Both the position numbers and the translations under genes were made by a program. Below, in pieces: positions 7,719 through 61,792 of a stretch of 64,000 nt of DNA. The stretch lies in the IMG/VR virus record IMGVR_UViG_3300010163_001408; one strand, written 5' to 3'. This DNA is from an uncultured virus (IMG/VR IMGVR_UViG_3300010163_001408). Taxonomy: Duplodnaviria; Heunggongvirae; Uroviricota; Caudoviricetes. The notes below the pieces were generated by a model, which saw only the letters and a list, made by a program, of their open reading frames with translations, made no database searches and was not told where the DNA came from. Position 1 is the first letter of the stretch, and each line of letters begins with the position of its first letter.

Positions 7719-8846
7719 GTGGCAAGTAATAATTTACCTTCAATCACAATTGAGACATTTACAAAAATTGTAAAAATGCAGTTTCAGGAAAGGAACTTCA
7801 GACCTATTTTTGGTTTGGGCAAGGGCGGAATCGGAAAGACAGAATCCATTGCAGATCTGGCAAAGAAGGAACTCAAGATCGGCTATATTGATGTAAGACT
7901 TTTGCTTTACAGCGAGACTGATTTGAAGGGTATTCCTTATCCTAACGCTGAACATACCCATACTATCTGGTTACAGAACAACATACTTCCTAATGAGGAA
8001 AGAGATGGAAAGTCAGGTATCCTTGTATTTGATGAAATTACATCTTGTGCAAGAAGTGTAAGAACAGCAGCATACCAGCTGTTGAATGAAAGACGTCTGG
8101 GTGAATATACATTACCTGATGGATGGATGGTAGTATGCCTTGGTAATGGTGAAGATGACGGTGGAGATTTCCAGGGTATGGAAGGGAACTTTACTAATAG
8201 ATGCTCGGTTTACAATGTTGTTCCTAATGTGGAATCTTGGAAGACTTGGGCATTGAAAAACAATGTAAATGAATTGGTATCTGCATACGTTTCATTTAAG
8301 CCTCAGGATCTTCACAGTTACACACCCGACAGTGAAACAGAAATGCTGTTTGCTTCTCCTAGAAGCTGGACAGCTGTAAGTAATATACTTAATACCTATG
8401 GTTACAGGGACGGGGACGAGATTATGTCAGCTCGTATTATTGGTAACCTTGGACAGCGTGTTGGACAGCAGTTCATTTCATTCTGCAAGTTCAAGTTCAA
8501 TGAAAAGACAATTGATCCTAAGAGGATCCTTGAAAATGGCGAAATGTTTAAGACAGATAGTCAGGAGATTATCTACATTACCATTGAAAGTGTAATCAAG
8601 CTTATGGGTGACCAGATCAAGGCAGATTACCAGAATAGTAAGATTCAGGAGAATACCTATAAGCAGGCAGCTAACGGTATGAGATGGATCCTTGGACTTA
8701 AGAAGGAATATGCTGTAATGGGATATAAGGACTTCATCAGATATGATGAAGACATCATGAGAACCTTTGTAATGACCCCTACTTTTCACAAGTTCTGTCC
8801 TGAACTGTTGAAGTTCGCAAAGGACAATGAGGCTATCTTCTCCTAA
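7719..8846 (+). CDS. MoxR-like AAA+ ATPase, probable partner of the VWA protein at 1937
   Basis: Walker A GKGGIGKT, IDVRL, DLKGIP, Walker B LVFDEI, YQLLNER.LG.Y.LP, FASPRSW; GTG start. Confidence 0.88.
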   Translation: MASNNLPSITIETFTKIVKMQFQERNFRPIFGLGKGGIGKTESIADLAKKELKIGYIDVRLLLYSETDLKGIPYPNAEHTHTIWLQNNILPNEERDGKSGILVFDEITSCARSVRTAAYQLLNERRLGEYTLPDGWMVVCLGNGEDDGGDFQGMEGNFTNRCSVYNVVPNVESWKTWALKNNVNELVSAYVSFKPQDLHSYTPDSETEMLFASPRSWTAVSNILNTYGYRDGDEIMSARIIGNLGQRVGQQFISFCKFKFNEKTIDPKRILENGEMFKTDSQEIIYITIESVIKLMGDQIKADYQNSKIQENTYKQAANGMRWILGLKKEYAVMGYKDFIRYDEDIMRTFVMTPTFHKFCPELLKFAKDNEAIFS

Positions 8847-8906
8847 GGGAGAGGATAGACCTCTGGAACTAAATGAGAGTTTGTATAAGGAGAATCAACA
8901 ATATAA

Positions 8907-10202
<1,296 letters not shown>

Positions 10203-10425
10203 GGAACAGAAACACTAAAGAGGGACATATCAAACATCAAAAAGCAGCAAACATTAAAACATATCAGGTATTAAAATACTATAGACATTATAGTTATAGG
10301 GAGGACAACTGGAACTTGTGCTTTACATATGAAATATTATGTAGGGTTACAAGTTTCAGTTGTATATGGAAATAGGATTGAACTAGGATATACATTGATA
10401 AACGTAAATTTAGGCAGGTAGTATT

Positions 10426-11436
10426 ATGAGGCTGAAAACAAAATATAAGACTTATACAAAGAGTAAAACAGAGAAGCAGAAAAAATTAGATAAAGAGAAA
10501 AAAAGTAATTTACCTAAAATAAGCCCAATATACAATAGTACATCTCCATATAACGTAAGAAGAGCAACAATAGACCTAACTAAATTAACATATGGTATCA
10601 TTGATAGTTGTGAATTAACAAGTATAAATATGATGGATGGGCAGATAAGTTTAAGTAATAGCTGGATAGAATTACTGCTTATAATGATAGATGCACTCAT
10701 AGAAAATAAACCAGACAATTTTATAGAATTATTAAGCATGCACAATGTTACAAATCAATGGTTTTGCATAGATAAGTATTATGGTAAATACACCTTTGAA
10801 TATGAAAATCCTAAGGTGTATAATATATATAACAGTGGATATTACTTAGAAGCAATTTTCAATAATTCTAATATATTTCATGCCATTATAGGTCTTACAA
10901 GATGTTTAGGATATCAACTTAATGAAATACAGCTAAACATAAGAAATCCCAAAATAGACAAAAACATAAACGAGATAGAGTTTAATCCTACAATGTTAGA
11001 GACAGAAGAAAGCATAGTAGACATAGATGGTGTATACAGTATGTTAAAGTCTGGCATACATCTGGTTGGAATGCAAATACTTGGATCTAATGCCAAGGTA
11101 CATCGAATAGACGTAGCTTTGATGCTTTTTTGTAATTGGATATATGATAATTATGGTATTTCTAGATTTTCAACAATAAAAAATATAGGGAATACGGGAA
11201 TTAGTTTGGAATGTACTAGTGAGGATGAAGAAAATGAAAACGGAAATAAAAATCAGGTACAGTATGAGCAGATAAGAAATAGTGGAATATATGTTTATAC
11301 AGACTTAAACAATGAAGATATCATTAAATTTATTAAGAATACATTAAAGAGTTTAAATATGGACAAATCACAATTGAAATTCAAATTCAGGGCATTAAAA
11401 GAGAAGAACAAGTTAAAGGAGTGGGAGATAGAATAA
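10426..11436 (+). CDS. Hypothetical protein with two internally duplicated domains and a basic N-terminus
   Basis: IYNSGYYLEAIFNNSNIFHAIIGL aligns with IRNSGIYVYTDLNNEDIIKFIKNT. Confidence 0.8.
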   Translation: MRLKTKYKTYTKSKTEKQKKLDKEKKSNLPKISPIYNSTSPYNVRRATIDLTKLTYGIIDSCELTSINMMDGQISLSNSWIELLLIMIDALIENKPDNFIELLSMHNVTNQWFCIDKYYGKYTFEYENPKVYNIYNSGYYLEAIFNNSNIFHAIIGLTRCLGYQLNEIQLNIRNPKIDKNINEIEFNPTMLETEESIVDIDGVYSMLKSGIHLVGMQILGSNAKVHRIDVALMLFCNWIYDNYGISRFSTIKNIGNTGISLECTSEDEENENGNKNQVQYEQIRNSGIYVYTDLNNEDIIKFIKNTLKSLNMDKSQLKFKFRALKEKNKLKEWEIE

Positions 11437-11437
11437 A

Positions 11438-12007
11438 ATGGCAAGCGGAATAGATAAACTTGGAAGTAAGAGGAATAAACTTACATTAGCCAGAATGACG
11501 CATGGTGATATAATTAAGAAAAATGATGCATTATACATAACAGATTATAAGGATACAAAAGTTCAAAACTTAATAAACATCTATACTGGATCAATTATGC
11601 AAAAGGTATTAGCTTCACCTTGGAATAATAAATGTAAGGATTCAATTTTTAAGTTAGAAGGTGACTTGATACTGGTAATACCTCAGATAGGTTTAGATGA
11701 TTATGCAGCAAGAGTGTATAGTGAAAGAGGAAACTGCATATTTGTGTTAAATAATACACGAGGTGTTGGGGTATGGTCGCGGTTATTAAATGATGAAAAC
11801 GTACTTGTAATTCTAAGAGACCAATATAAAAATAATAGAGCATTTGTATGGAATCCACAATTGCAAAAGATTACAGAGTATTATGATGGAGTTACAGATG
11901 TATACACTGATAGTAAAGAAGGTATCATTAGAATAAATCAGTTAACAGATGATGATCACATAATAAATCATTCATATACCATAGACATTATGGAGATGAC
12001 AATATGA
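11438..12007 (+). CDS. Paralogue-array protein 1
   Basis: LARMTHGDIIKKNDALYITD…LINIYTG…RVYSERG…VWNPQLQKITEYY. Confidence 0.85.
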   Translation: MASGIDKLGSKRNKLTLARMTHGDIIKKNDALYITDYKDTKVQNLINIYTGSIMQKVLASPWNNKCKDSIFKLEGDLILVIPQIGLDDYAARVYSERGNCIFVLNNTRGVGVWSRLLNDENVLVILRDQYKNNRAFVWNPQLQKITEYYDGVTDVYTDSKEGIIRINQLTDDDHIINHSYTIDIMEMTI

Positions 12008-12582
12008 GTTTAGACTTATCTGCAGCAGGAATAGACGTAGGCAATAGACTTGCAATATTAAACATGACTTATAAAAAGATATACAAGCTAACTGATTCAA
12101 TATACATAGCAGTAATAAATGAATATAAAGATGAAGATGATATAATTTTAATAAACATATTAACTTCTGATGTACTTGAGAAAAGAGAACATTGCTTAAA
12201 AAATAGTGCAGAAGAAGCAAATGAACTGAATTACTACTCTGACATAAAGATAATTAATGGATTAGTAGCAACAACTCCAAATTCATTAGCTAATATACCA
12301 TTTAGATTATATAATGACTTTGGAGATTTAATAAAGAGCATAGAGATTAAGAGTGTAGAAGATATTGTATGGCTTAACTTAGTTGATAATAAGTTAATCA
12401 TATTAATAATAGGAATAATAGGATATTATAATTTATGGTGCATAATATATAACAACAATACACATCAAATAGAAGAATATTATGATAAAGTAATGTACTT
12501 CTGGCAGCCACATAGCAGCATAATAAGTATTGTATTGGGAGATAAATATAGAACGCAAAATGATTATGAGGTAGACAATTAA
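12004..12582 (+). CDS. Paralogue-array protein 2
   Basis: LAILNMTYKKIYKLTDSIYI…LINILTS…RLYNDFG…IIYNNNTHQIEEYY; ATGA overlap with the previous gene. Confidence 0.85.
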   Translation: MSLDLSAAGIDVGNRLAILNMTYKKIYKLTDSIYIAVINEYKDEDDIILINILTSDVLEKREHCLKNSAEEANELNYYSDIKIINGLVATTPNSLANIPFRLYNDFGDLIKSIEIKSVEDIVWLNLVDNKLIILIIGIIGYYNLWCIIYNNNTHQIEEYYDKVMYFWQPHSSIISIVLGDKYRTQNDYEVDN

Positions 12583-13157
12583 TGGAAGAAACAAACATTG
12601 AAAATAACGAAGAGGACATGAGTTTAGATGCAAGATTAAATATAATAAATACAATATATGGAAATTCATATCCATTAAATAATGGTGTATGTATCATAGA
12701 TAATTTTCCACAAACATATAACACATATCAGAAAGATTTAAAAATTGTAAATAGCTTCACAGCTCAGATATTGGGAACTATATTAACTTATAAAACTAAA
12801 GTAAATGACCACCATGTAAGATATCATGGCGTGCTTAAACTTGAAAAACTAGTATTAATACAATTAAGTAGATATGATTCAAGGTTATACAATGAGTTAG
12901 GAAATTTGATATATACTATTCCCGAAAGGGTAATCAGTCTTATTTGGCATCACATTAAAGATAACAAGCTAATCATAACATTTTGTCATTCATACACTAT
13001 AATATATAATAAAACAACACATATGGTAGAGGAGCATTTTGATAATTATGCGACAAATTATGATTTTGATAAAGAGGCGGAAAATGATATTATAATATTG
13101 AAATTAATTACAGCTAGTGGTATAATAGTTAATAAGAGGTATGTTAAGGAGGTATAG
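12582..13157 (+). CDS. Paralogue-array protein 3
   Basis: LNIINTIYG…IVNSFTA…RLYNELG…IIYNKTTHMVEEHF; TAATG overlap. Confidence 0.85.
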   Translation: MEETNIENNEEDMSLDARLNIINTIYGNSYPLNNGVCIIDNFPQTYNTYQKDLKIVNSFTAQILGTILTYKTKVNDHHVRYHGVLKLEKLVLIQLSRYDSRLYNELGNLIYTIPERVISLIWHHIKDNKLIITFCHSYTIIYNKTTHMVEEHFDNYATNYDFDKEAENDIIILKLITASGIIVNKRYVKEV

Positions 13158-13160
13158 GAC

Positions 13161-13775
13161 ATGAGTAAAAAAGAGGACAGCATTTTAAAAGAGAAGGTAT
13201 CATTAGCATTATTAACATATGGCTGCATAAGAAAAATATCCAATACCCTATATATGAGTGATGACAAATATGGTCCATTTAATACACCAGTTGAGCAGAT
13301 ATTATTTAATATATACACAGGCATTGTATACGAGAGGGTTCCAGTATTTAAGTGGGAAATTAACTCAGGATTATCATATAGTGAAAAAACAGTTTATAAG
13401 TACTCATGTAATATATCTAGGTCTAAAAATAATTTTGTGTATAATGACCCAGTAGTTAATCACATAACAAATAGAACTGATGTATTTACACTATACAGTC
13501 CAGCTGGATTCCCTATATTCAAGTTAAATGGCCTAAAAAGAATAGCTCATGTGAAACATACCGAATATAAAATAGGAGACAAGTATGCTTTTATTAGGTT
13601 GCATTACGGTGGAAGTCAGAATTACGGAATATTATATAACCTATACACCAATAAAATAGAGGAATATTATCCAAATATAGTTAACATGCTAATTAATGAG
13701 GAAAGAGGCACCCTAAAGGTAATTAGAATGTTAGAGGATGGCAAACTTGAAACAAAGGTTTATGGTGCATTCTAA
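13161..13775 (+). CDS. Paralogue-array protein 4
   Basis: LALLTYGCIRKISNTLYMSD…LFNIYTG…TLYSPAG…ILYNLYTNKIEEYY; AGGAGG RBS. Confidence 0.85.
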   Translation: MSKKEDSILKEKVSLALLTYGCIRKISNTLYMSDDKYGPFNTPVEQILFNIYTGIVYERVPVFKWEINSGLSYSEKTVYKYSCNISRSKNNFVYNDPVVNHITNRTDVFTLYSPAGFPIFKLNGLKRIAHVKHTEYKIGDKYAFIRLHYGGSQNYGILYNLYTNKIEEYYPNIVNMLINEERGTLKVIRMLEDGKLETKVYGAF

Positions 13776-13888
13776 GACTAGTCAATAGATATAGTAGTAA
13801 AGCATAATAACTGTGTATAAAGTGTATTAAATAAAAATTGAACAGTTACCTATAGAGACATACAATTATTGAAAAAGGATTATAGAAA

Positions 13889-14458
13889 ATGGATAAAATA
13901 AGTAATAAAGAACGCTTAGCATTACTTGAAATGATATATGGAAAGCTGGTAAAAATCAATAGATACATATACAGAACAGACGTACCAGAAATGCCTAAGC
14001 AAAAAGTATTTAACATAAGAACTGGTGAAGTAATAGAGGAAAGAGCAGTAATCTTTATTACTGCTCATCATGGCACTGAAATAACTGGATATCAAGATAA
14101 TTTTGATGAATACGAGTCACATTTGGTATATTCATTTCCAGATTATAGTGCAAACAAGAAAAATAAAACACTTAGAGTGTATAATGAGGATGCAGACTTA
14201 GTATTAAAGATAGATTACTCACTTGATGAAAATTTGACGGTTTCAGACTTTGTTTTAGCAGATGATAAAGTGTTATTGGTAGTTACAATATATAGTAGTA
14301 CATGTAGATTTCCAGTATATATTTATGATAGAAAGACTAAAACCATGAAAAAAGAATATATGGCGGCATCAACTGCTATAAAGAAAAACAAAAGGGTATA
14401 TGTACCTTTAGATCAATCTTATAGACATTGCAAGTCATATGAATTGGAGAGAATATGA
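13889..14458 (+). CDS. Paralogue-array protein 5
   Basis: LALLEMIYGKLVKINRYIYRTD…VFNIRTGEVIEER…RVYNEDA…YIYDRKT. Confidence 0.85.
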   Translation: MDKISNKERLALLEMIYGKLVKINRYIYRTDVPEMPKQKVFNIRTGEVIEERAVIFITAHHGTEITGYQDNFDEYESHLVYSFPDYSANKKNKTLRVYNEDADLVLKIDYSLDENLTVSDFVLADDKVLLVVTIYSSTCRFPVYIYDRKTKTMKKEYMAASTAIKKNKRVYVPLDQSYRHCKSYELERI

Positions 14459-15093
14459 TGAATGCATTAAAACAAGAAAAAGAAGTCAATTTATTAATGC
14501 TGAAAACATTATATGGTAAACTCAGAAAATTAAATGATGTAATTTATATTACAGATACTGAAGGTACAAATATACAAAAAATAATAAATATTGCTACTGG
14601 AGAGGTTTTAATGCATAGAATGGTAACTAGAGTACCATTATTTTTCAATTCAAGTATGTTTGCATACAGTGATTTTATACAAATTGGCTTGAGAAAATAT
14701 GGGCTTATCTATATTCATGCAGATACAAATGGTGTTATAGATGGCTGCTTCAGAGTATACAATATACATGGAGAATGTTTGATAGAACAACACATATATG
14801 AAGGTTATACAGTTGTATATGAATATAAATTAGATAATAATAAACTGTTAGTATTAGTAACAGTAAGAAAATATAATAAAAATGAAAATGAGGAAACATA
14901 CTTCATTGTTTATGATAAGTCAACAGAAAACATAGAGGATAAACAATATTATACAAAAATAAGTAAAATAAAACATAGAAATAGAGAGAGTATACGTATA
15001 AAATTAACTTCATCTAAACATAAGACATTTAAATTAGCAAAAAAAGATAATGAAAATTTAGATGAAGCATTATATTTATATAATCATATATGA
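14455..15093 (+). CDS. Paralogue-array protein 6
   Basis: LLMLKTLYGKLRKLNDVIYITD…IINIATGEVL…RVYNIHG…IVYDKSTENIE. Confidence 0.85.
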   Translation: MMNALKQEKEVNLLMLKTLYGKLRKLNDVIYITDTEGTNIQKIINIATGEVLMHRMVTRVPLFFNSSMFAYSDFIQIGLRKYGLIYIHADTNGVIDGCFRVYNIHGECLIEQHIYEGYTVVYEYKLDNNKLLVLVTVRKYNKNENEETYFIVYDKSTENIEDKQYYTKISKIKHRNRESIRIKLTSSKHKTFKLAKKDNENLDEALYLYNHI

Positions 15094-15695
15094 AAGGTAG
15101 ACATAAAATGGGCATGGACGATAAGTTTGATTATAATAAGGCATTACTTGAAATGACATATGGTAAAGTAAGAAAACTAAATAATGCTTTGTATATAACA
15201 GATAAATCTTGCGACATAAATATGCATGACTTTGATGTGGTCACAAGCGAAGAAAGTATAATTAATGTACAAACAGGAAAAATACAAGAAACAAGGATTG
15301 TGCACAAAATACATCGAAGTGAGCAACAAGCATTAGATTATAAAGATGGCATAGTAATTTCAAATCAGTTTGGCATAGTTTATGCAAAAGAGAACAATAT
15401 AAATGATTTTAGAACATTTAGAATATATAACAATGACGGAAAAATAATATACGGGGAATATAAAGATGAAGCCCTAGATATAACTATACATGAACAAAAA
15501 ATATCTAATACTAGCATGCTTATATTATTAGATAATAAGAAAAGTAGAATGCTAACAGGTATATTATATAATGATACATCAAATAAGCCAAAGGTTTATA
15601 AAAACATAATAGAAACACGTATACACTATGGTTCACCTGTTAAAGTAACATTAATACTTAATAAATGTGATCATACAGAGGTTGTAAAAATATGA
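15090..15695 (+). CDS. Paralogue-array protein 7
   Basis: ALLEMTYGKVRKLNNALYITD…IINVQTG…RIYNNDG…ILYNDTS; true start may be the ATG at 15108. Confidence 0.85.
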   Translation: MKGRHKMGMDDKFDYNKALLEMTYGKVRKLNNALYITDKSCDINMHDFDVVTSEESIINVQTGKIQETRIVHKIHRSEQQALDYKDGIVISNQFGIVYAKENNINDFRTFRIYNNDGKIIYGEYKDEALDITIHEQKISNTSMLILLDNKKSRMLTGILYNDTSNKPKVYKNIIETRIHYGSPVKVTLILNKCDHTEVVKI

Positions 15696-16150
15696 ATGAG
15701 GATTATGAAAATAATCTGGCAATATTAAAAATGACATACAACAAACTTAGAAAGCTAAACGAGTATTTATATATAACGGACACGATTAAAAATAGTAATA
15801 GATTTTATATTAAAACAACTACAAAGAAAATAATAAATATAATCATTGGAAAAGTACTTGAGGAAAGAGTTGTAACTAAACAAAACATTACAGATGTACC
15901 TAGTTACAATGATGGAATTGAGGTATCATATTTTACTAAATTTGTATTTGCAAAACATGGAAAAGTGGTGAAATTATAGTTAAGGATATATAGTAATAAC
16001 ATTAAGTAAATATACCTGTACTGTAATAATATACAATATGCAGTTAGGAAAAGTTGAAGGTATATATGATAATATATCTTCTATGAAACAATATGGTAAC
16101 AAGGTAGACATAGACATAACCAAGAAAATTTCAGAGGAGCTTGAAATAAT
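15692..16150 (+). pseudogene. Paralogue-array member 8, disrupted (premature TAG at 15977, then deletion/frameshift)
   Basis: LAILKMTYNKLRKLNEYLYITD N-terminus; LRIYSNN follows the TAG in frame; IIYNMQLGKVEGIYDNI appears in the +1 frame from 16008. Confidence 0.8.
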
Positions 16151-16723
16151 ATGGGCAAAGACTATACAGAAAGAATTGCATTATTAAAAATGACATATGG
16201 TGATGTACAAAAAATCAATAGTTGCTTGTACATAACAAAAAGAGAATCAATAGATGGTACTTTCCTCCTATTAAATGCAAACACTGGTGAAGTATTGGAA
16301 AAAAGGTATAATTTAGCATCAGCATATGACGGACATACTTTGACAGGTGTAATACCATTAAATTCAGAATTAACCATTACATTACCTCAGTACCTCTCTC
16401 CTGGAGATTTCAGTTTAAGATTCTATGATAGACAAGCAAACATGGTATTTGAAATTGAAAATTGTACACTAGACTTTTCAAATTCCAAAGCATATCAATT
16501 AAAAAATAAACATAAGCAATTAATTTTATTAGGGTCTGCAAAAGAAGTATATTGGGCAGCAATATATGATAGTAAACTTAATAAGATTACAAAAGTCATA
16601 AGAGGAATAGTAAATTGTATTGTAAGAACTAGAGATATCTATTCAAACAATGAAATATGCATTATATATATGAACGAAAGAGGTATAGCACATACTCTAA
16701 GATATACGTATGTAATTTTTTAA
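16151..16723 (+). CDS. Paralogue-array protein 9
   Basis: IALLKMTYGDVQKINSCLYIT…LLNANTGEVLEKR…RFYDRQA…AIYDSKL; GAGGAG RBS. Confidence 0.85.
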   Translation: MGKDYTERIALLKMTYGDVQKINSCLYITKRESIDGTFLLLNANTGEVLEKRYNLASAYDGHTLTGVIPLNSELTITLPQYLSPGDFSLRFYDRQANMVFEIENCTLDFSNSKAYQLKNKHKQLILLGSAKEVYWAAIYDSKLNKITKVIRGIVNCIVRTRDIYSNNEICIIYMNERGIAHTLRYTYVIF

Positions 16724-16750
16724 TAAAATTTTTAAGGAGAAAAATTAATT

Positions 16751-18343
16751 ATGTATTACATTGATTTAAAGAAAGATAAACCTGATATTGGTCGTATGGA
16801 AGCAACTATGGATAGACTTATGACAAAGGGAATAAGACTAGCTGACTGTAACGAATTAAAGACTTACTATGCAGAATTAAGGGAAACACTTAAAAATGAT
16901 ATAAGTGAGAAGTATTACATTAAGAATCCTAATAGTCCTGCTCAAATAGTGGACTTCTTAAAAGTGACAGCATCTACAATAGATTTGAATAGTAAGAATG
17001 ATATTATAAATATCTGCTATAATAGTGAAGATGACAAATGGACAACTAATGCAGAAGCATTAGGAAAATTGGCAGACTTGGGATATGAATTTGCAAGAGA
17101 TATACTGGATTACAGGCATGTTAAAAAATATGCAGAAAGCATTGAAAGTATTACAGAGGCGGCTGATGAAAATGGGTTAATACATCCTACTGTTAGTTTA
17201 GGTAAGACTCATAGAGTGAATTATAGCAATCCTGGTTTATTAACAATTCCTAAGAAGTTATTATGGTATATCATAGCACCTTATACCAAAGGAAATGTAT
17301 TGTATAGCATAGATATTAAGAATCAGGAACCTAATATACTAATTAACATTACAGGTGCAAATGAACTTAAACCAGCATTAGAAAGTAAGGATGGGTTATA
17401 TGAAACACTATTCAAACAGTGCTTTGTTCCTAAAGTGACAATGAATGTTCTTATAGATACATTACCAGAGAACAGAGTTTATGAAATAAATGAGTTAAAG
17501 CAAATTGGAACAATATCACCTGCAAGTTACTCGGCAGCTAAACCAGCTGTTAATAATATTTACTACAATGATGAAAGGGTAGTTGGCATTGAAACAGTTT
17601 GTGCAGGTAGTGAAAAAGGATTAATTCCACAGTTACCTGAAACAATAAGCATTGAAACAGAGAAGGGAAATATTTATTCTGTTAAAGTAACATGGGATAT
17701 GGAAACAGTAAACAAGAAATATAAAAGAGGAAACGATTATTCTGTAACAGGTACACTTGATGAACTTGAAGTAAGAGTGTCAAAAGCAGAAAGAAAAGAA
17801 TTTAAGACAGCTTGGTTGGCAATATCTTATGGAGCAAGCATATTTGGAATCAAGTTATCATGTAAGATTATAGATGGTGCAACAGTATATAACTTCGCAA
17901 CAAAGGTAAATGGATTAAAAGAATACAGAAGTAAAATAGATGCACTTGCAAAAGAAGGTAACAGCATCATAGGAACTGCATTTGGAACACCTCTCAACGC
18001 TGGATATTATGATGACTGGAAAAAATTAAAGAGGGTGTTACTTGATCTTCCAATTCAAGGCACTGGAGCGGATATATTATCACTCTTAATTAATAGATTT
18101 TATGATTATACGACAGAGCATAGTTTAGATGATAAAATGTACTTGTATTATACAAGACATGACGAGTTAATCATAGAAGTTGACCAGAAATATTTAAGTG
18201 AAATTGGAAATGAAAAGATGGAGAGTATACTAAGAGATATGCTTGAACATCAGATAAATGACTGGTCACCATTCCATGTAGAGATACAGCAAGTAGGAAA
18301 TAAAAAGGTTGATATAAGTGAAATAGAGGATGATGAAGATTAA
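16751..18343 (+). CDS. Divergent family A DNA polymerase, polymerase domain only, with an inserted Ig-like segment
   Basis: NPNSPAQI (thumb), ILDYR, THRVNYSNPGL, motif A SIDIKNQE, motif B RKEFK….ISYG, PIQGTGADI, motif C RHDELIIE. Confidence 0.85.
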   Translation: MYYIDLKKDKPDIGRMEATMDRLMTKGIRLADCNELKTYYAELRETLKNDISEKYYIKNPNSPAQIVDFLKVTASTIDLNSKNDIINICYNSEDDKWTTNAEALGKLADLGYEFARDILDYRHVKKYAESIESITEAADENGLIHPTVSLGKTHRVNYSNPGLLTIPKKLLWYIIAPYTKGNVLYSIDIKNQEPNILINITGANELKPALESKDGLYETLFKQCFVPKVTMNVLIDTLPENRVYEINELKQIGTISPASYSAAKPAVNNIYYNDERVVGIETVCAGSEKGLIPQLPETISIETEKGNIYSVKVTWDMETVNKKYKRGNDYSVTGTLDELEVRVSKAERKEFKTAWLAISYGASIFGIKLSCKIIDGATVYNFATKVNGLKEYRSKIDALAKEGNSIIGTAFGTPLNAGYYDDWKKLKRVLLDLPIQGTGADILSLLINRFYDYTTEHSLDDKMYLYYTRHDELIIEVDQKYLSEIGNEKMESILRDMLEHQINDWSPFHVEIQQVGNKKVDISEIEDDED

Positions 18344-18377: not shown

Positions 18378-18791
18378 ATGGCAGTAGAAGGTCAGCTTAA
18401 AAGAAGAGAACTGGACATATTAAACATTCTGTTCAACGCAGAACAAGATTTAACCTCTTACGAGATTTCATGTGGGATGGAGGGGCTTACACAAAGTACT
18501 GTAACACAGGTAACAAATAACTTTCTAAGAGAAGGGATAATAGAAGTAGCAGACATAAAACATTCAGGTAAAGTTTTTAGTAGAACATTTAAACCTACTG
18601 AAAAAGCTAAAGAGGTATTATTAAATCATATGATAAGCAATTACAAATACACAAATAACATCATATCCAAAAGTGAAGCATGTAAAGCAATATTAGAAGT
18701 TGAACAATCACCAGCTGAACTAAAGCAACAGATTAAAGAATTAAAAGCAATTATAAAGAAACTGGAGTATAAAGAAAAGAATGAATTATAA
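18378..18791 (+). CDS. Winged-helix transcriptional regulator (BlaI/MarR-like)
   Basis: RELDILNILF….LTSYEI….LTQSTVTQV…L.EG.IE pattern; C-terminal coiled coil. Confidence 0.75.
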   Translation: MAVEGQLKRRELDILNILFNAEQDLTSYEISCGMEGLTQSTVTQVTNNFLREGIIEVADIKHSGKVFSRTFKPTEKAKEVLLNHMISNYKYTNNIISKSEACKAILEVEQSPAELKQQIKELKAIIKKLEYKEKNEL

Positions 18792-19041
18792 TGCTATGCA
18801 CCTAACAGAAAAAGAAATTAAAGAATTAATGATACAAGAAAAATCAAGAATGGTGCACTGTCCATTTTGTGGAAACAACAAGGTAAAAGTAACAAAAATA
18901 AACTTAGGATACGATATAAAATTCCAAGGCATATGCAATAAGTGTTTTAGTAGAGGACCAGCAGTAAAAAACGATGTACACAAAGCAGTAAACAAGTGGA
19001 ACGAAAGAGTTTATCTTCATAACGTAAATAAATTGGAATAA
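18781..19041 (+). CDS. Lar (restriction alleviation)-like zinc-finger protein
   Basis: CPFCG…CNKC..RGP……AVNKWNER. Confidence 0.75.
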   Translation: MNYNAMHLTEKEIKELMIQEKSRMVHCPFCGNNKVKVTKINLGYDIKFQGICNKCFSRGPAVKNDVHKAVNKWNERVYLHNVNKLE

Positions 19042-37512: not shown

Positions 37513-38241
37513 ATGAAGCAAGGATTTTATGAGAAGTATAGACCAGTAGGAATTGATGTGGAACTAAATAAAAGAAAGAAGAGCAGTACAATAATATTAA
37601 GTGAATTTTATGATAATATCAGACCAGTAACAATAAAAGATTTCTTTAATAAAGAAATTATAGATTTCACTAAAGAAAATGTATATAACAATAAAAATAA
37701 TAGAATAATACTCATAACTGGTGAGAGTGGCAATGGAAAGACTACACTAGCAAGGGTAATTAATAATGATATGCATATCAAACTAGTAGATATAAATGAA
37801 AGAACTGCTAGTATACTTGAAGGAGTAAAGGAATTATTTAAGAATGCAATAAACAGTAAAGAAAAGACATTATTTGTATTTGATGACTTCAACCTTATAA
37901 CAAACCAAGCACAGATAGCAATTTCAGAATTGTTCAAAGATTTACCGGAACACGTAACAGTAATATTAATAAGCAGTGATAAAAAATGGTTAGAAAGATC
38001 AGTTTATGATAAGTGTAATTTAATCATAAGCATTCCTAATCCAACCAGACAAGAAATAGAAAACACAATAAAGCCAATAATAAATAGTAAATCATTGCAA
38101 ATTGGTGATAAGGCATTCAGCCTATTGTTAGATAAGTTGGAAGGTAAAAATTTGAGAGAGTGCATAAATTCAGTTATCCTATTTATAACCTTAAATAAAC
38201 ATACTATTACAGCTAATGACATTATAGAATATATAGGATAA
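37513..38241 (+). CDS. Short clamp-loader-like AAA+ protein (DnaX/RFC paralogue)
   Basis: FYEKYRP, Walker A GESGNGKTTLAR, Walker B FVFDDF, AQ.A, NLRE.IN. Confidence 0.75.
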   Translation: MKQGFYEKYRPVGIDVELNKRKKSSTIILSEFYDNIRPVTIKDFFNKEIIDFTKENVYNNKNNRIILITGESGNGKTTLARVINNDMHIKLVDINERTASILEGVKELFKNAINSKEKTLFVFDDFNLITNQAQIAISELFKDLPEHVTVILISSDKKWLERSVYDKCNLIISIPNPTRQEIENTIKPIINSKSLQIGDKAFSLLLDKLEGKNLRECINSVILFITLNKHTITANDIIEYIG

Positions 38242-38368
38242 CTAGTTAATAATATATACAACTATAGTATATAGCATCTAAATATAAAGAAGAGATTTTT
38301 AATTATATTTAGGTGCTATTATTATTGCAAAATATACATTAAGATATTACTAGGAGGCATAAAAACAA

Positions 38369-39805
38369 ATGGCAGATGCATTGGATAAAAGTTGGTATAC
38401 TAAGTACAGACCAAGGACTATGGAAGAATATAGTGGACCAGCTATAAAGAAAATAGTAAAGATGCGTTTTAGTAAACGAGAAAACATGGCACATGTAATG
38501 ATGATACATGGAACAAGAGGATGCGGTAAGACAACTTTTGCAAGAATCATATCCAAATATTACCTTTGCCTTAATCCAAATGAAGATGGATCACCTTGTG
38601 AAAAATGTGAAATGTGTCAATCAATTAATGATATACTTATAGCTGGTGAATCAACACAAGTAGAAGTGCCAGGTGTCGTAGAGGTGGACGCTACTATAGC
38701 AAATGGTAAAGAGGCTATACAAGAAGTAATGGATGATGCACTATTAGCACCATTATACACACAATTTAAAGTATTAATCATGGACGAATGCCATATGTTT
38801 TCTAATGCGGCACAAAACAGTTTACTTAAACTAATTGAGGACATACCACCTCATTTAGTTGTTATTTTTGCTACTACAGATCCGCAAAAGGTGTTACCTA
38901 CAATCAAATCTAGATGCCAACTTACTCTAGAAGCAAGAAAACAGACTGTACAAGATATGGCAAATAGGCTAATGCAGATATCTGAAATGGAAAAGCTTAC
39001 AGTAAGTAAAGAAGCATTAGAGATTATAGCTAGAAAAGGTAATAGAGTACCAAGGGAATGCATAAACCTACTTGAAAATATAGCTAAGACATATAGCGGA
39101 GAAGTTACAATAGACAATGTAAAAGATTACCTTGGCGGGGCAACATCAGATTTATATATGGAATACTTTCAAGTAGCTAACAAATCCTTAGGTGATATTC
39201 TAGTATTCATAAAAAAATTAAGAGATCAAGATGTTAAGCTAAATGATTTTGTAAGCAACCTTACAGGATTTGTATTAGATAGCATGTATATAAAGCATGG
39301 TATATCATTAGAAGAATATCCTAATGACTATATAAAATCAGTTAAGCAATTATTTGACATATACAATAGCAGTGATTTTGATATGTTGTTACAGGTAATA
39401 GAGTACTTGTCAAATCAGCTTACAGTAGATGACGATAATAAAAATGAGATGTTGCTTGTAACTACTGCTATGAGAATAAGCAAAATAAGTTTATTAGCAA
39501 ATGGGTTAGCTAGGGAGCAAGAAGAAGCAATTATAGAAAATAGGATTTCATTAGTTGAGCATCATAATAGATTAAAAGCAAATAATAATCAAGCTTTAGA
39601 AGCAACAAAAATTGATATGGACTTATCCGAAATTAAAGATGAATTTGGGGATGTGCATCAAGTAGTCAATACAGTAAATCTGTTTGAGCAGGCAAAACAA
39701 AATATTACTGATTTACCAGCTTTAGACACTAATAATGAAATAAAGAAAGTAAATAACAATATGATAAGCTTTGATAGTGAAATAGATGATTTTCTTAATA
39801 GTTAA
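38369..39805 (+). CDS. dnaX: DNA polymerase III gamma/tau-like clamp-loader subunit
   Basis: WYTKYRP, GTRGCGKTT.AR, C…PC..C..C zinc motif, DECH, N.LLK..E..P, ATTDPQK…TI.SRCQ. Confidence 0.88.
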   Translation: MADALDKSWYTKYRPRTMEEYSGPAIKKIVKMRFSKRENMAHVMMIHGTRGCGKTTFARIISKYYLCLNPNEDGSPCEKCEMCQSINDILIAGESTQVEVPGVVEVDATIANGKEAIQEVMDDALLAPLYTQFKVLIMDECHMFSNAAQNSLLKLIEDIPPHLVVIFATTDPQKVLPTIKSRCQLTLEARKQTVQDMANRLMQISEMEKLTVSKEALEIIARKGNRVPRECINLLENIAKTYSGEVTIDNVKDYLGGATSDLYMEYFQVANKSLGDILVFIKKLRDQDVKLNDFVSNLTGFVLDSMYIKHGISLEEYPNDYIKSVKQLFDIYNSSDFDMLLQVIEYLSNQLTVDDDNKNEMLLVTTAMRISKISLLANGLAREQEEAIIENRISLVEHHNRLKANNNQALEATKIDMDLSEIKDEFGDVHQVVNTVNLFEQAKQNITDLPALDTNNEIKKVNNNMISFDSEIDDFLNS

Positions 39806-43773: not shown

Positions 43774-43802
43774 TTATAAATAATAACAGATGGAGATTGG
43801 TT

Positions 43803-46271
43803 ATGAAAATTACATCACTATTTAAAAGCATATCTAAAAAAGTAAGTATACTAAGTATAATAGGATTATGTACACTGGGTTTATCAGGATGTGGTGAGAA
43901 TATAAAGAACTTTTTAGAAACAGATTGTAATAATGCCATTATGGATAGGCTAGAAATGAATTTAAAAGTATTACAGACATTGCATAGTAACGGGTTTATT
44001 TCAGATTTAACATATAAAAATTATGAGAATAGTATAAATGTACAACAGCAATATTATAGTAGTGAATTTACAAACATAGATTTGAATAACCTTGGTAAGT
44101 CCTGTCCTTTTTTAAATAATATACACAAATTAAGATATGTAACATGTGAAATGGTAGCTAATACTGGTAAAACAGCTATAACATACCCGAATGATAAAGG
44201 TGAAATAATAAGCTACAGTCTAAAAGAACATGCTAGTGACGGGTTTCCTGATGGAGTATACATATCTAATACATTAATTCAACACGTAACTAAATTTGGT
44301 AGTGTAAGTGACTCCCCTGGAGATGTACATACCTGCAGAGACACTGACTTAACACCAATGAATATATTAGGAACAGACATATCAACTGACATGGCAACAC
44401 GATTTAATTGTCCAGTATACGTATTAGATTGGGAATTGATCACACAAGATGGTAATTCATCATTAGATTCTGTCATAGAAGCTGTACATAGCGCAATAAC
44501 AACTGGTGCAGATGGTTCAAGAAGTGTAAACGATGCAATATTAGAGAAATATTTTAGGCAAGCAGAAGATGCAAGTGGTAAACCAATAACACTTGGAGAA
44601 GACTTTAATATAGCATTGGACATGGTAAGAGTAACAAGTGAAAATCCAACATTTAACAATTTAAATAGTAATGATGTATCAAATGAACTTGGTTTAGACT
44701 TAGTAATAAGCCAATATGATGTTCCAGCATTTACAGTAAGATTACAAGAAATAAATCCTGTGGCATGGGAAAACCTGCAAAAGCTACTGGGAATGAATGA
44801 TAGTAAGTATATTTATTCTGAAGCAAACGGTGGTAAATTCTATGTCATGGAATATCCAGTATGGTACTTAGATTCTATAAAGAATGAAACTGCCAATAGT
44901 TCAACTGCCATTGGAACATTTGCAGAATCAGGAATAGGGGTTAACCTATACACACAAAAAATACTAAAGTATGATCCAATTTATAGTGGTAGCAAAATTA
45001 CAGGGTGGTCCAAGACAGGTACTGAAATTTCAGAATTAGTAGATTCATATTTAACATTGGCAGGTGCTAGCAATGGGGACTTTAAGGGTAAATCAGCATT
45101 CATGGTAAATGGTACACAGGACATTGATATAGCACTTTATATAACAGCTTCTGGCAGTATGGGAACAGTAAAGGGTGCAAGAATAATACTTAGAGATTAC
45201 CTTGAAGCAACCTTTGCACCAAACTTTGTAGACGAAAGTAACCTAGTAGTTTTTGGTAGAAAAATAAGATTTCTATTTAAGCCAGAAAACTTTGATGCAG
45301 ATGGAAATATAGTAATAGATAAAACACAAGAAATGGCAGTTTATGTGGATAAAGAAGGTAATAACATTTTGGATGGAAATTATTTAACAATCACAGATTT
45401 CTGTTCAGCCCAAGACCTAACACTGGATAAACCTAGAATAACAAGATTAAATATGATATCAGAAAAAGGTACAACAGTGATACCTGGTCAAACATCAACA
45501 ACAGACAAGGCCATGACAGTAGATCAGTTAGATCAAGTAGGTCAGGCAGGTACAAGTCCAATACACATTACTATGATGTTTCCTGGGGATAAAATAGGGA
45601 GAGCAGATTATGGAGATCATGGTTTTAATGACAATAACTCCAAACAAAGATTTTATGCTGTAGCAACACGAAAAGGGATATTTAACTCTGGTTTATATTC
45701 TAATTGGATAAATATAACTGATAATACAGCAAGTTTAGACTGGTGGAATACATATCTTAATGATAATCAATTTAAATATTCAGTAGGCCACCAAGAAGTT
45801 AATGACTATCTATTAGGTAATTTTGGATACGAACTCAGTCAATCTGGCATAATCATATTAGATTTGGATACTATAGCATTTATTCAAGAGGAAATGAATG
45901 AAGAATCACAAACAGAGACAGCTGAATTTACAAGAACAATATTTGTAATCATAGGTTGGTTTTTAATATGCTATGCAATCATGTTAATGCTAGCATGGGT
46001 TATAGATACAAACTTGGATATAGGTATTGATTTATTAAATAAATTAACACTTGGTAGCTGGATAGCAGTAAAGTATGCAGAGGATATTCCAGCTTATGAC
46101 TTATCAAATAATAAGTATATGCCACTATCAAGAGTAGTTGTAAGCAGTTTCATTATAACGGCAGTAGCATTATTGCTTATAACAGTTGATATATACAGTT
46201 TAGTTATAGCAATTATAAGGGTTTGTGGTAGTATAGCTTCACAAATACAGCAGATGTTATCTGGAAAATAA
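43803..46271 (+). CDS. Large lipoprotein-like protein with C-terminal transmembrane helices
   Basis: Lipobox LSGC; two C-terminal hydrophobic segments; ATG at 43803 after GGAG. Confidence 0.82.
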   Translation: MKITSLFKSISKKVSILSIIGLCTLGLSGCGENIKNFLETDCNNAIMDRLEMNLKVLQTLHSNGFISDLTYKNYENSINVQQQYYSSEFTNIDLNNLGKSCPFLNNIHKLRYVTCEMVANTGKTAITYPNDKGEIISYSLKEHASDGFPDGVYISNTLIQHVTKFGSVSDSPGDVHTCRDTDLTPMNILGTDISTDMATRFNCPVYVLDWELITQDGNSSLDSVIEAVHSAITTGADGSRSVNDAILEKYFRQAEDASGKPITLGEDFNIALDMVRVTSENPTFNNLNSNDVSNELGLDLVISQYDVPAFTVRLQEINPVAWENLQKLLGMNDSKYIYSEANGGKFYVMEYPVWYLDSIKNETANSSTAIGTFAESGIGVNLYTQKILKYDPIYSGSKITGWSKTGTEISELVDSYLTLAGASNGDFKGKSAFMVNGTQDIDIALYITASGSMGTVKGARIILRDYLEATFAPNFVDESNLVVFGRKIRFLFKPENFDADGNIVIDKTQEMAVYVDKEGNNILDGNYLTITDFCSAQDLTLDKPRITRLNMISEKGTTVIPGQTSTTDKAMTVDQLDQVGQAGTSPIHITMMFPGDKIGRADYGDHGFNDNNSKQRFYAVATRKGIFNSGLYSNWINITDNTASLDWWNTYLNDNQFKYSVGHQEVNDYLLGNFGYELSQSGIIILDLDTIAFIQEEMNEESQTETAEFTRTIFVIIGWFLICYAIMLMLAWVIDTNLDIGIDLLNKLTLGSWIAVKYAEDIPAYDLSNNKYMPLSRVVVSSFIITAVALLLITVDIYSLVIAIIRVCGSIASQIQQMLSGK

Positions 46272-46303
46272 CATAAAAATTTATCAAGTGAGGATAAGAA
46301 AGA

Positions 46304-49300
46304 ATGAAGAAGGCATTTAAAAACATTGTAATAAGTGCATTATGTATAGCTAGTGTTGTGACAACAATAATATCAGCAATACCTGTAGCACATGCAGACA
46401 GCTCTTCAATATTAAGTACAAATACAGCGTTAGGTTCACCTGTACTTAATGATGACTTTGTAGTAGAAGATTGGAATAAGTGGGAGATGGAAGTTTGGGG
46501 GATATATTTAAGTAATTTCTGTCAGCCACTTGTAGATACATATGAAACTGCCTTCAAAACTGGTGCAGGTGGCAATAATGGAGCAGGATATAAAGCATTA
46601 TGCTTTGGGTCAGGTAGTGATCCAGAAAATAATGAAACTATACAGGCATTATGTGATGAAGCAATACTATATCAGAAAACAGTTACCAAGCAGTTGTACG
46701 TAACATATACAACACTAATTTATAATGATACAGACTTAGAAGATAAAGATACAAGTAAGGCTGATGCAAATACAGTAGAACCAAGACCAGCCAATTTCAA
46801 TGATTTATTATTTATAAATGGGGATGATGATAATAAAACATGTGCATCATCCATTGAATATGCACTTGTTCAACAAAGTCTGGGCTTTGATGAACTTTTA
46901 AAATTTGATAGACCATCAGGATCAACACTTGGCAGTAATAATCAAGACTACACTAGCATAGCACATGCAGAGGTTGTACACATACCAACTTTTTGGGTTA
47001 AAAATAATGGCGGCAATGGAAATAAGTATATTAAAATATTAGATTATAATGATTCATGGGATCTACAGATGGCAAATATACTATTTTCATCTGAAAGATT
47101 TATAGCAGACGAAACATTCCAGGGAAAATTTACTGAATTAATGCAGGGACAATATCCTATAGTGTTAGATGCATTTGGTAATATAACAACACAAGATAAA
47201 CTAATGGTAATACCAGCAGCAGTAAACCCTAATTTAACAAAAGAAAAACAGATAAATTTATTAAATTCATGGATATTTAATGGATACAACTCCACATATT
47301 CAGACGAGGATTTAATATCTAGCTTATGTCAGTACAGAACCAATTACGGAGGTTTACCAGCATTTGTAGACTCTGATAAATTAAAAGGAACAGTATTACT
47401 GTATTATGACATGGATACTATAATGTATAATTTAAAACAAACTGGACAATACAATGATTCCAGCGCACATTATGGTAAGGCACTTAAAGAATTTTTTGAC
47501 ACAGACATAACATCAAAAACAAATCAATATCAGCTTAAAATTGAATCAGTGGGACTTGATGATTCATATTTAAACTTTTTTAATGCTATAACACCTTGGG
47601 AACAAACAAACTTAACAACATCGTTATTAAGTAATGCACTACAATCAAATAAAAATAGACCTAAAATGCTATATCAAATCATAGATACCAAGGGCAACAA
47701 GATTCCATTATTTACTGAAGACAATGCAAATGCAGTAATAGTGGCTCCTCAGTTGCTAGGATCAGGTACAGGGAGTGCAAGAGATAGAGCAGAGGGAGTT
47801 AGAATGTTCTACAATTACTTATACGAAGTTTATTGTGGAAAGCATGGGGAAGCAGCAGCAACATGGTTAAGAAACAATTTAGAAAATAATGAAACAACAG
47901 ATACATTTGAACATTTTGTAAATAACGTAGCAACTAAATATTGGGATGATTTTGTAAAGACATACCCAGAGTATAAAAATGAAAGATGGAGAAAGGATTG
48001 GTTAGACTGGGGAAAAAATAATAGTGTAAGTGATAGGTCTAATAGACTTGTTAAGGTGTACCCTATATCAACAACAATGAAAACAATAGCACAAGTCATG
48101 GGACTTGTAGACGGTACGGAGTTTAATGTATATTGTACACTAGTTTATGCAACATATCTTGATTGGTATGGCATAGGAAATGCAAAGACAATAGGTGGAG
48201 ATGATCCATCAGAATTTAATCCAGATATATTTGATGGTCAATCAGATATATTAAATTTAGATATAACAGATCCAAAATTTAAGGGGCAAAGTAAAGTGGA
48301 TAGAGAGGAAGAAATTTTAAACCTTGGCTACTTAATGCTTAGTCCAGAGAAAGGTAGAGATTATAGAAAGCAACTTATATACAATGGCATTGAAGATTTC
48401 GTATATGAGCAGTACAACAGAATAGTTTACGGTGGAAAAGATTCAATGTATTCTGGTACAGCATCAAAAAGTAACTCAGGCTTCCTTGCAATAGAAACAT
48501 TTACAGACAATCCATTTACATCATGGTTTGTAAATGGTTATGCATCAGTAGTAATATGGTTCTTAATGGGAACTGTTATTATAATCATTTTAGTAGGTTT
48601 ACTAAAAAAGAGAAAATTTTCATGGTACTTATTGAATGTTATATTAGCAGTAAATTTGATATTATTAGTACCATCAAGTGGTGAGATAGTACCTTATGTA
48701 ACATCAAGGTTCATAGAAAGTATGTTTTCTAGCAAGATGACTTATTGGGCAGTCAGTGAGGGTATATCTAATGCCGCCATTGAATCAAATCAGTTTAACA
48801 TAGACAGTGATGATGAAGCAGATTTAGTAATGAGTTTAGTTAAAACTTTAAACGTAGTTTATACTGATCGTTCATTAATGTTAAAGCAAGACATTTCTCA
48901 AAAGATAACACAAAAGACAGTGGGAGTGTATAATGATATACAGAATATACGTTCAGCTAGATGGTTATTGCCTATAGTTATGGAACAAATGACAGGGGAT
49001 AACAATACAACAGATTACTTATATGTTAAGCTAAGTAATGTTTGGGATGATATGTCTAATTTATATTGGTATTATAATAGAGGTGATACTCTTAACATGA
49101 CAGAACCAACAGCTACATCCCAACAAAACGATGATGCAGCAGTATCATACGGAACAGCAGAAGGTGATATGAAAGATAGTGAAACATACTCACTTGTAAA
49201 AGATTACTTTGATGATTATGCAATAATTGATAGAGATGATAGGTATAACAATTACAATTATAGAAGTTATTCATATACACAATATGATAATGCAGATCAA

Positions 49301-51226: not shown

Positions 51227-51230
51227 AACT

Positions 51231-51270
51231 TAAAGGTAGGCCATAAAATTAAAAAGGTCTGCCTTTATTT
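51231..51270 (+). terminator. Probable terminator
   Basis: TAAAGGTAGGCC/GGTCTGCCTTTA stem with G-U pairs plus T-rich tail. Confidence 0.55.
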
Positions 51271-51412
51271 ATTATATAAATAAAATTAAGGTATCAGTAA
51301 ATTCATGTTAAAAACTAAGAAGCATAGATGGTATCAATAGAAGTCAATAAAAAAGACATTTAGATTAAGGGTTAGAAAATATTTATTTAAGATTTGCTTA
51401 AGGAGAAAAATA

Positions 51413-51601
51413 ATGCCACTACAATATAAGTTAGAGTATGTACAAGAATTATTAGTTAAAAACAATGGAGTAAAGAAAAGAGTCGCAGATGAATTAGGAA
51501 AAGACCCTGCCAATATGAAGAAATACTGGAGATTAATGAGGGATAATGGCATGCTGGATTCTAACTACAATCTTGTAGATACTAAGTTAAACAATAAATA
51601 A
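51413..51601 (+). CDS. Small HTH-like protein
   Basis: AAGGAG RBS; GVKKRVADELGKDPANM (Fis-like HTH pattern). Confidence 0.6.
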   Translation: MPLQYKLEYVQELLVKNNGVKKRVADELGKDPANMKKYWRLMRDNGMLDSNYNLVDTKLNNK

Positions 51602-51620
51602 TTGGAGATAAGACATAGAT

Positions 51621-52871: not shown

Positions 52872-52893
52872 AATAAAAGGAGCATAGTTTAAT

Positions 52894-55521: not shown

Positions 55522-55557
55522 CACATAAAAGATTTTAAAATCAAAGGAGTAAAAATA

Positions 55558-56964: not shown

Positions 56965-56975
56965 GGTAATATAAG

Positions 56976-59057: not shown

Positions 59058-59069
59058 GAGGTAAACACT

Positions 59070-59231
59070 ATGTACTTTATGTTATTTATAGTGATATTAG
59101 CAGTAGTTTATATTAAATCATTTAAAGATAGCTTTAATCAAGAACAATTACAAAAAGTAGGAAATATTTTAACTATAGTGACAGTAGCATTAATAGTTAT
59201 ATTCATACTAGCAAGTATTTTACTTCATTAA
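59070..59231 (+). CDS. 53-aa two-TM membrane protein, absent from the ORF track
   Basis: GAGGT RBS; MYFMLFIVILAVVYIKSFKDSFNQEQLQKVGNILTIVTVALIVIFILASILLH fills the gap between the two ATPase genes. Confidence 0.75.
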   Translation: MYFMLFIVILAVVYIKSFKDSFNQEQLQKVGNILTIVTVALIVIFILASILLH

Positions 59232-59246
59232 GGTGGTAAATTTATT

Positions 59247-61697: not shown

Positions 61698-61792
61698 AAA
61701 CAGATACAACATTATATGTATAGGGTTGTATCAAATTTAAGGAATTATAGCTTGAGAGATTTATAAAAATACATTGATGAAAGGAAATAGTC

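Follow-up and report, generated by a model that had tools for sequence, protein, structure and literature searches.

The 64,000-nucleotide stretch of DNA analysed here (the window; IMG/VR record IMGVR_UViG_3300010163_001408, an uncultured virus assigned to Caudoviricetes) carries a gene for a family A DNA polymerase (PolA) of 530 amino acids (aa). Judged from its structure model, thumb, palm and fingers make up the whole enzyme, with no exonuclease domain, and the tip of the fingers bears an insert modelled as an immunoglobulin-like (Ig-like) domain of the Big_4 type on a short beta stalk. The DNA that encodes the polymerase is a giant mobile element from gut bacteria. Exonuclease-less PolAs of this kind, 390-530 aa long, make up a large and unnamed family which is found on giant (116-720 kb), low-GC extrachromosomal elements coded on one strand. 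The gene and the parts of its product are the following.

16734..16739, + strand: Shine-Dalgarno-like AAGGAG, 11 nucleotides (nt) 5' of the ATG, by direct reading
16751..18343, + strand: family A DNA polymerase gene, 530 aa, polymerase domain only, from the ATG start, Pfam, PHROGs, the AlphaFold2 model and structural search
16751..17311, + strand: N-terminal part (aa 1-187) with palm and thumb sequences; its residue 7 corresponds to Klenow 523, and R155 of the TGR motif is invariant
17312..17329, + strand: motif A, D188 to E193, DIKNQE; D188 and E193 invariant in 100/100 relatives
17432..17782, + strand: insert of ~117 aa (aa 228-344) at the fingers tip, between the helix of aa 216-224 and the O-helix; beta-rich, with a predicted local distance difference test (pLDDT) score of ~97
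17621..17761, + strand: Big_4 (PF07532) match, aa 291-337, with a structural match to solved Big_4-type repeats over aa 274-340
17783..17833, + strand: O-helix and motif B, aa 345-361, with R348, K352, L356 (the F762/B3 position), Y360 and G361
18155..18166, + strand: motif C, R469 H470 D471 E472, from the alignment of relatives
18296..18340, + strand: acidic C-terminal tail, last 15 aa, acidic minus basic residues = 5

The protein matches Pfam DNA_pol_A (PF00476) at 6.2e-25 in two stretches (88.4 bits against a gathering threshold of 34.3), as do 100/100 aligned relatives, and PHROGs assigns it to phrog_17, DNA polymerase. The AlphaFold2 model, built on the alignment of these 100 relatives, has a mean pLDDT of 95.8 and a predicted template modelling score of 0.91. 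In a structural search against representatives it was placed on the Klenow fragment (1d9d_A) with Z 29.4 and a root-mean-square deviation (rmsd) of 3.1 Å over 368 aligned residues, and on these further polymerases.

4x0p_A, Pol theta, Z 26.0
8jrb_B, Aquifex Pol I, Z 25.2
9qsc_A, apicoplast Pol, Z 24.8
2ajq_A, T7 polymerase, Z 21.8

Foldseek concurs, with the Bst large fragment matched at 1e-16. Model residues 7-518 superpose on Klenow 523-926 only, and since the match begins at Klenow 523, both the 5'-3' and the 3'-5' exonuclease domains are absent from the polymerase. This is in line with the first-pass annotation of this DNA, which had described an exonuclease-less family A polymerase starting at the thumb. 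The bacterial Pol I equivalog models of NCBIfam (PRK05755 / TIGR00593) score the protein far below their cut-offs, at 60.9 bits against 720 and 37.4 bits against 600.

Eight residues (R155, D188, E193, Y217, K352, Y360, Q436 and D471) are invariant in all 100 aligned relatives, while E472 is retained in 98 and R348 in 91 of them. The invariance of the catalytic residues implies that the polymerase should be active, and we regard it as intact and predicted to be catalytically competent. The catalytic Asp residues of motifs A and C, which had been described as kept, are D188 and D471, and the distance of 160 codons given between the motif A Asp (nt 17312) and the motif B Arg (nt 17792) is exact for D188 and R348. 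For comparison with E. coli Pol I we assume the numbering D705, R754 and F762. The residue equivalent to F762 (B3) is Leu at aa 356, as annotated, and across the family this position holds Asn in 58, Leu in 37 and Ile in 5 (n = 100). Several ordinary PolA subfamilies have Leu here, according to the available part of PMC10201439, so that Leu is no mark of the error-prone enzyme that had been considered. Asn at this position finds no mention in the available parts of PMC10201439 or PMC6302109. The acidic tail is also a frequent property, with an acidic excess of at least 3 in the last 15 residues in 67/100 relatives.

In both the alignment and the model the insert forms a clean indel, bounded by the helix of aa 216-224 on one side and the O-helix (aa 345-359) on the other, a site which we take to be the loop between helices N and O in Klenow nomenclature. 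It directly precedes the helix bearing R348, K352 and Y360. Between query positions 226 and 346 there are 113-146 residues in 68 of the 100 relatives, 6-9 residues in 31 and 77 residues in one. The earlier estimate of about 110 aa inserted between motifs A and B is therefore borne out, at ~117 aa, with a short linker in its place in nearly a third of the alignment. The likeness to Big_4, also noticed from the sequence, is supported by a Pfam match to PF07532 at 1.9e-6 (27.8 bits, cut-off 22.1), and Big_4 is detected in 51/100 relatives with a best E of 3.7e-11. A phmmer search with the insert alone (aa 226-345) found three repeats of 8q2h_A, a B. circulans beta-galactosidase, at E 8.5e-7. In the model, aa 274-340 fit 8q2h_A 852-917 with an rmsd of 1.9 Å over 66 residues (24% identity, Z 5.6), and residues 240-339 fit BbgIII (7nit_A) over 77 residues with Z 6.2, the Z values being modest because the Ig domain was searched within the whole 530-residue model. 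An Ig-like fold of the insert, on which the earlier description depended, is thus predicted by its fit to solved Big_4-type repeats.

The insert also matches multi-repeat giant proteins in a search of representatives of all lengths, for instance P0224 (1745 aa, 14 stretches). Inside the polymerase Big_4 is present as a single copy, not as the tandem repeats of secreted or surface proteins, and the net charge of the insert is negative in 57 of the 68 insert-bearing relatives (mean -2.8). Two distant exonuclease-less relatives, P0210 (478 aa) and P0213 (501 aa), hold a different, non-Big_4 insert at the same place, and because of these the loop before the O-helix looks like an insertion hotspot.

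A word-indexed search returned 251 homologues of the polymerase. The best 120 of the 251 are mostly of ~526 aa with Big_4 and DNA_pol_A, on contigs of up to 720,900 bp, and two homologues bear the NCBI name [quoted passage not shown]. An exhaustive search of 1.84 billion representatives gave 611 matches at E <= 0.001, of which 72 reach E <= 1e-30; many are of 380-420 aa and match in two stretches (~1-225 and ~344-518), which corresponds to an insert-less version of the polymerase, and none of the strong matches has a fused exonuclease. Neither the 50,697 phage records nor the 72,556 plasmid records searched contain a close relative. The same holds for chromosomes, where the best 80 loci from 185,579 species genomes are ordinary PolAs with at most 32% identity over the matched part. 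Family members were found only on metagenomic contigs, up to 720 kb, and binning ties the elements that carry them to Lachnospiraceae. On a FastTree phylogeny with the insert columns kept, the insert label needs 10 changes; on a quick IQ-TREE phylogeny with these columns dropped (54 of 108 rows) it needs 6. The backbone is weak, and a single insert-bearing clade is not rejected by the approximately unbiased test (p 0.56).

The window belongs to a contig of 172,141 bp, has its long open reading frames (ORFs) all on the + strand and a GC content of ~30%, and is collinear with 19-88 kb of a larger IMG/VR record, G001 (268 kb, CheckV 89%). In G001, 228 ORFs of at least 110 aa were scanned with Pfam (E <= 1e-5), ten boundary-crossing ORFs being left out of the scan, and 69 Pfam-less ORFs were compared with PHROGs. 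Three further related records were used: G002 (250 kb, rated 100% complete), G003 (116 kb, 51%) and G004 (265 kb, with terminal repeats, 100%). For replication and DNA handling G001 has a 5'-3' exonuclease of the FEN type (309 aa) and a DnaB-like helicase (phrog_19 at 4e-18), and it further codes for NAD ligase, gyrase B and A, a DnaX-like clamp loader and an RNase H-like protein. The record also encodes ParM-like and ParA-like proteins and FtsK-like and HerA-like ATPases, of the partition and transfer type, housekeeping-type proteins (ClpP, ClpX, ClpB, IF3, SmpB and CCA-adding enzyme), ThyX and, as mobile-element genes, three TnpB. The clamp loader is encoded in the window as well.

37513..39805, + strand: clamp-loader genes, for a 242-aa AAA+ protein and a 478-aa DnaX-like protein (dnaX_nterm 238 bits, cut-off 250)

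No capsid, portal, terminase or tail family was found in G001 among the 228 ORFs scanned with Pfam and the 69 compared with PHROGs, and IMG/VR still classes these records as viral. The Hodor megaplasmids, defined in the available part of PMC12934698 by Rep_3 and sortases, were considered and set aside: neither family occurs among the 228 G001 ORFs at E <= 1e-5, and the elements probably form a different class.

The first-pass annotation had also suggested that the polymerase could be one half of a split enzyme, and had proposed to look for a stand-alone DEDD exonuclease on the replicon. This idea holds for the 5'-3' activity, which is encoded by a separate gene within a conserved module. In five of five insert-less loci (L099-L101, L180 and L181) FEN has a gene of its own, 0.6-4.9 kb upstream of that for the polymerase, and FEN together with homologues of a protein of ~320-358 aa is located 0.4-4.9 kb upstream in the same five. 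In G001 other genes separate the pair of FEN and ~320-aa protein from the polymerase gene; the pair is situated 12.6-13.7 kb upstream, with FEN itself at 13.7 kb. Further upstream in the five insert-less loci are homologues of a 933-aa and a 274-aa protein of G001. The whole forms a conserved replication-type module (G001 8114-17863 and the insert-less loci) of the 933-aa, 274-aa, 204-aa (2/5 loci), FEN and ~320-358-aa proteins, the last of which could be an initiator.

For the 3'-5' activity, no adjoining gene for such an exonuclease was found. The neighbours of the polymerase gene in the window are an ORF of a paralog family and a 137-aa ORF without Pfam family, with no exonuclease gene adjoining. 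The DEDD family PF01612 is absent from G001, and of the four related records one has a clear RNase_T/DnaQ-type ORF far from the polymerase gene (G002 119902-120318, 52.6 bits, above the cut-off) and a second a weak one (a 205-aa ORF at G001 159274-159888, likewise distant, 19 bits, DinG exonuclease domain 3.7e-4). These distant ORFs are candidates for proofreading in trans.

The ~320-aa protein was tested as a hidden 3'-5' exonuclease because it is placed where Pol I has that domain. Its family (P0322) has 135 homologues; P0322 itself is from a contig equal in size to that of the window, and at least 13 other members are from contigs equal in size to those of polymerase homologues. The AlphaFold2 model of P0322 has a pLDDT of 92.1 and no Foldseek match at E <= 0.001, and a PDB sequence search and the Atlas were likewise empty. 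The best structural matches are HUH Rep nuclease domains with Z 5.8 and 5.1 (residues 125-301 and 125-303), too weak to name the fold, and the N-terminus has winged-helix-like matches. With no exonuclease among the structural matches listed, a hidden proofreader in this neighbour is unsupported.

A second upstream protein differs between loci with and without the insert.

10426..11436, + strand: 336-aa protein with a lysine-rich N-terminus (net +11 over the first 45 aa) and no known family; homologues upstream of the polymerase gene in 3/3 insert-bearing loci

This lysine-rich protein matches no Pfam, PHROG or NCBIfam family, and its structural matches in the Atlas (TM score of at most 0.42, GmrSD_C/DUF4268 clusters) are leads only. 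A homologue with 44% identity is encoded directly upstream of the polymerase gene in G001, and another upstream of it in the third insert-bearing locus, L179 (BLASTP 1e-11). With a hidden Markov model made from the three proteins, and E values of up to 10 allowed, no homologue came up in any of the five loci that lack the insert, so that the gene is present in 3/3 loci with the insert and in 0/5 without it. The family has 31 members including the query; seven homologues are on contigs equal in size to those of insert-bearing polymerases, three of these contigs being shorter than 5 kb. We consider the lysine-rich protein the leading candidate partner of the insert.

In the window, the space between the lysine-rich gene and the polymerase gene (11438-16723) is filled by nine tandem + strand ORFs (189-212 aa) and a 95-aa ORF (15692-15979) of one very divergent paralog family. 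The members have 14-26% identity to the first and an N-terminal pattern L.LL.MTYG...K.N...YITD in common. The array is absent at the syntenic place in G001, and its first and last members have no Pfam or PHROG family.

Concerning the function of the polymerase, the reading we put first, with about as much doubt as belief, is that the element relies on it as its own main enzyme of DNA synthesis, most likely as the replicase. In favour of this are the intact fold and motifs, the replication genes of G001, the conserved module with FEN and the absence of other candidates in all four related records: a six-frame search of G001 found no Pol III alpha, PolB or second PolA, and neither Pol III alpha nor PolB was found in G002, G003 or G004. 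As a replicase the polymerase would cooperate with the DnaB-like helicase, the DnaX-like clamp loader, the separate FEN, the RNase H-like protein and the NAD ligase of the element, and proofreading would be absent or provided in trans. Several observations weigh against such a role. The enzyme lacks a proofreading domain, and a clear DnaQ-type exonuclease is present in only one of the four records; unedited copying of 170-720 kb would mean a heavy mutation load and fits short-patch synthesis better. Beta clamp, SSB and DnaG (zinc ribbon) were not recognised in the six-frame search of G001, and the element may therefore lean on the host replisome, including the host PolC. The link between insert and lysine-rich protein, for its part, comes from eight loci that are non-independent and confounded by relatedness, and in the window 5.3 kb of other genes, the divergent paralog array, separate the two genes. 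There is another explanation, to which we give appreciable credence while inclining against it: the host PolC or DnaE would copy the element, and the polymerase, with FEN, the RNase H-like protein and NAD ligase, would remove primers, fill gaps or extend an origin primer or nick, the insert being a tether to one such partner. The missing proofreading domain, the FEN gene beside the polymerase gene in relatives, the RNase H-like and NAD ligase genes of G001 and the unrecognised clamp, SSB and primase there are all in agreement with this. Nor is there 3'-5' editing in the Pol I of Bacillus or of Taq, and in Firmicutes some theta plasmids depend on Pol I for the start of their replication. However, an own clamp loader and DnaB-like helicase would be unusual for replicons that are simply copied by the host replicase, none of the four records yielded another polymerase, and the host already has a Pol I.

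With respect to the insert, the mildly acidic Ig module on the O-helix would most likely be a protein-docking surface for an accessory factor and not a DNA-binding patch, and its charge makes docking more likely than a DNA clamp. The new interaction module proposed in the first-pass annotation is plausible. It is tempting to speculate that the Ig module docks the lysine-rich protein and forms with it a two-subunit replicase, in which the accessory protein would ride on the O-helix and contribute processivity or the hand-off of the primer. The exonuclease-less PolA served in this way would be the sole polymerase to replicate elements of up to 720 kb. We consider this complete picture unlikely. 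Still less probable, in our view, is that the insert acts without a protein partner, as an intrinsic device for processivity or strand displacement which reaches across the cleft or onto template or downstream DNA, comparable to TPR2 of phi29 or the thioredoxin-binding domain of T7. Its position on the mobile fingers beside the O-helix would suit such a device, the different insert of P0210 and P0213 indicates that the site tolerates and perhaps selects add-ons, and the weak HUH-Rep-like fold of the ~320-aa neighbour (Z 5.8) would suit nick-primed strand-displacement synthesis; but an acidic surface is poor for gripping DNA, and 31/100 family members manage without the insert. Hardly any weight is given to a specialised translesion or modified-base polymerase, in which the enzyme would be suited to non-canonical nucleotides by its insert and by the Leu or Asn that takes the place of F762. 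A dCMP deaminase and a PurA gene nearby, ThyX in G001 and the Asn at B3 in 58/100 relatives, on which the available parts of PMC10201439 and PMC6302109 are silent, could be taken in its favour. On the other hand, the synthetase is a true PurA and not PurZ, the Pfam scan of the window revealed no DatZ/MazZ-type genes, neither the steric-gate Glu nor any of the catalytic residues departs from the standard, and Leu at B3 is common in ordinary PolAs.

The adenylosuccinate synthetase gene is full-length (window 8907-10202) and absent from the syntenic G001. A Z-genome (DpoZ) system was rejected: the PHROGs label is after PurZ, yet in NCBIfam the PurA model gives 522 bits (cut-off 402) and the PurZ model 120 (cut-off 300). 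The polymerase gene is followed, after about 440 nt, by one for a restriction alleviation protein of the Lar-like type (window 18781-19041; phrog_599 6e-12, Pfam 28.1 bits against a cut-off of 28.6). A block of very large ORFs at 43797-63340 (824, 1640, 416, 875 with a ParA-like C-terminus, 468 with coiled coil, 693 HerA/TraG-like, 816 FtsK-like, and 515 aa) is conserved with 67-88 kb of G001 and may be a machine for DNA transfer or segregation.

The architecture, an exonuclease-less PolA with an Ig-like insert in the fingers, was not found in the literature. A search for Big_4/PF07532 together with polymerase, or for exonuclease-less PolAs in jumbo phages, gave nothing relevant. The available part of PMC10201439 describes 19 PolA clusters, ordered insertions (the T7 thioredoxin-binding domain, the AID of Pol gamma, the phiKMV thumb extension, SPO2-like fingers hairpins and a fused UDG) and two exonuclease-less cases, the split S-SBP1-type and CCPol-MP, and in it there is no Ig-like insert or exonuclease-free family of the present kind, though its Supplementary Table S3 could list more insertions. 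The results point to a large natural PolA family without exonuclease domain, one branch of which grafts an Ig domain of extracellular type on a catalytic moving part. If the polymerase is indeed the sole replicase of elements of 170-720 kb, fidelity without proofreading and the source of processivity become questions. Polymerase engineers may be interested in a natural scaffold that resembles Klenow, is compact (390-530 aa) and has a proven site for insertions, and the results help in defining giant gut elements of a class about which little is known.

Compared with known polymerases, the protein has its fold and catalytic motifs in common with Klenow, the Bst large fragment and KlenTaq at 16-20% identity, but it lacks the 5'-3' domain and even a vestigial 3'-5' exonuclease domain, and adds the 117-aa Ig-like insert before the O-helix. 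The insert is homologous in sequence and structure to the Big_4 repeats of secreted glycosidases, the B. circulans beta-galactosidase (8q2h) and B. bifidum BbgIII (7nit), with a common conserved pattern LP..V.V...G....V.W......G. The glycosidase repeats are tandem and extracellular, whereas the polymerase has a single copy within a cytoplasmic replication enzyme.

Other PolAs of mobile elements without a fused 3'-5' exonuclease, in the available text of PMC10201439, are the split T7-like enzymes (S-SBP1-like) and CCPol-MP of staphylococcal SCC elements, neither of which has a fingers insert. In the S-SBP1 type the exonuclease gene directly adjoins the polymerase gene, whereas none adjoins it here. 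CCPol has a small beta-barrel partner (MP), the gene for which is next to its own, and keeps a remnant of three exonuclease helices that binds MP, while our model starts at Klenow 523 with no remnant seen. Long ordered insertions like the present one are the T7 thioredoxin-binding domain, the AID of Pol gamma and the phiKMV-like thumb extension, which are thought or known to recruit a processivity partner (same part of PMC10201439). The T7 domain and the phiKMV-like extension are located in the thumb, as described there, whereas the insert is at the fingers tip and consists of an Ig-like domain that has been borrowed. The proposed pair of polymerase and lysine-rich protein would be a fingers-side counterpart of T7 gp5-thioredoxin or CCPol-MP.

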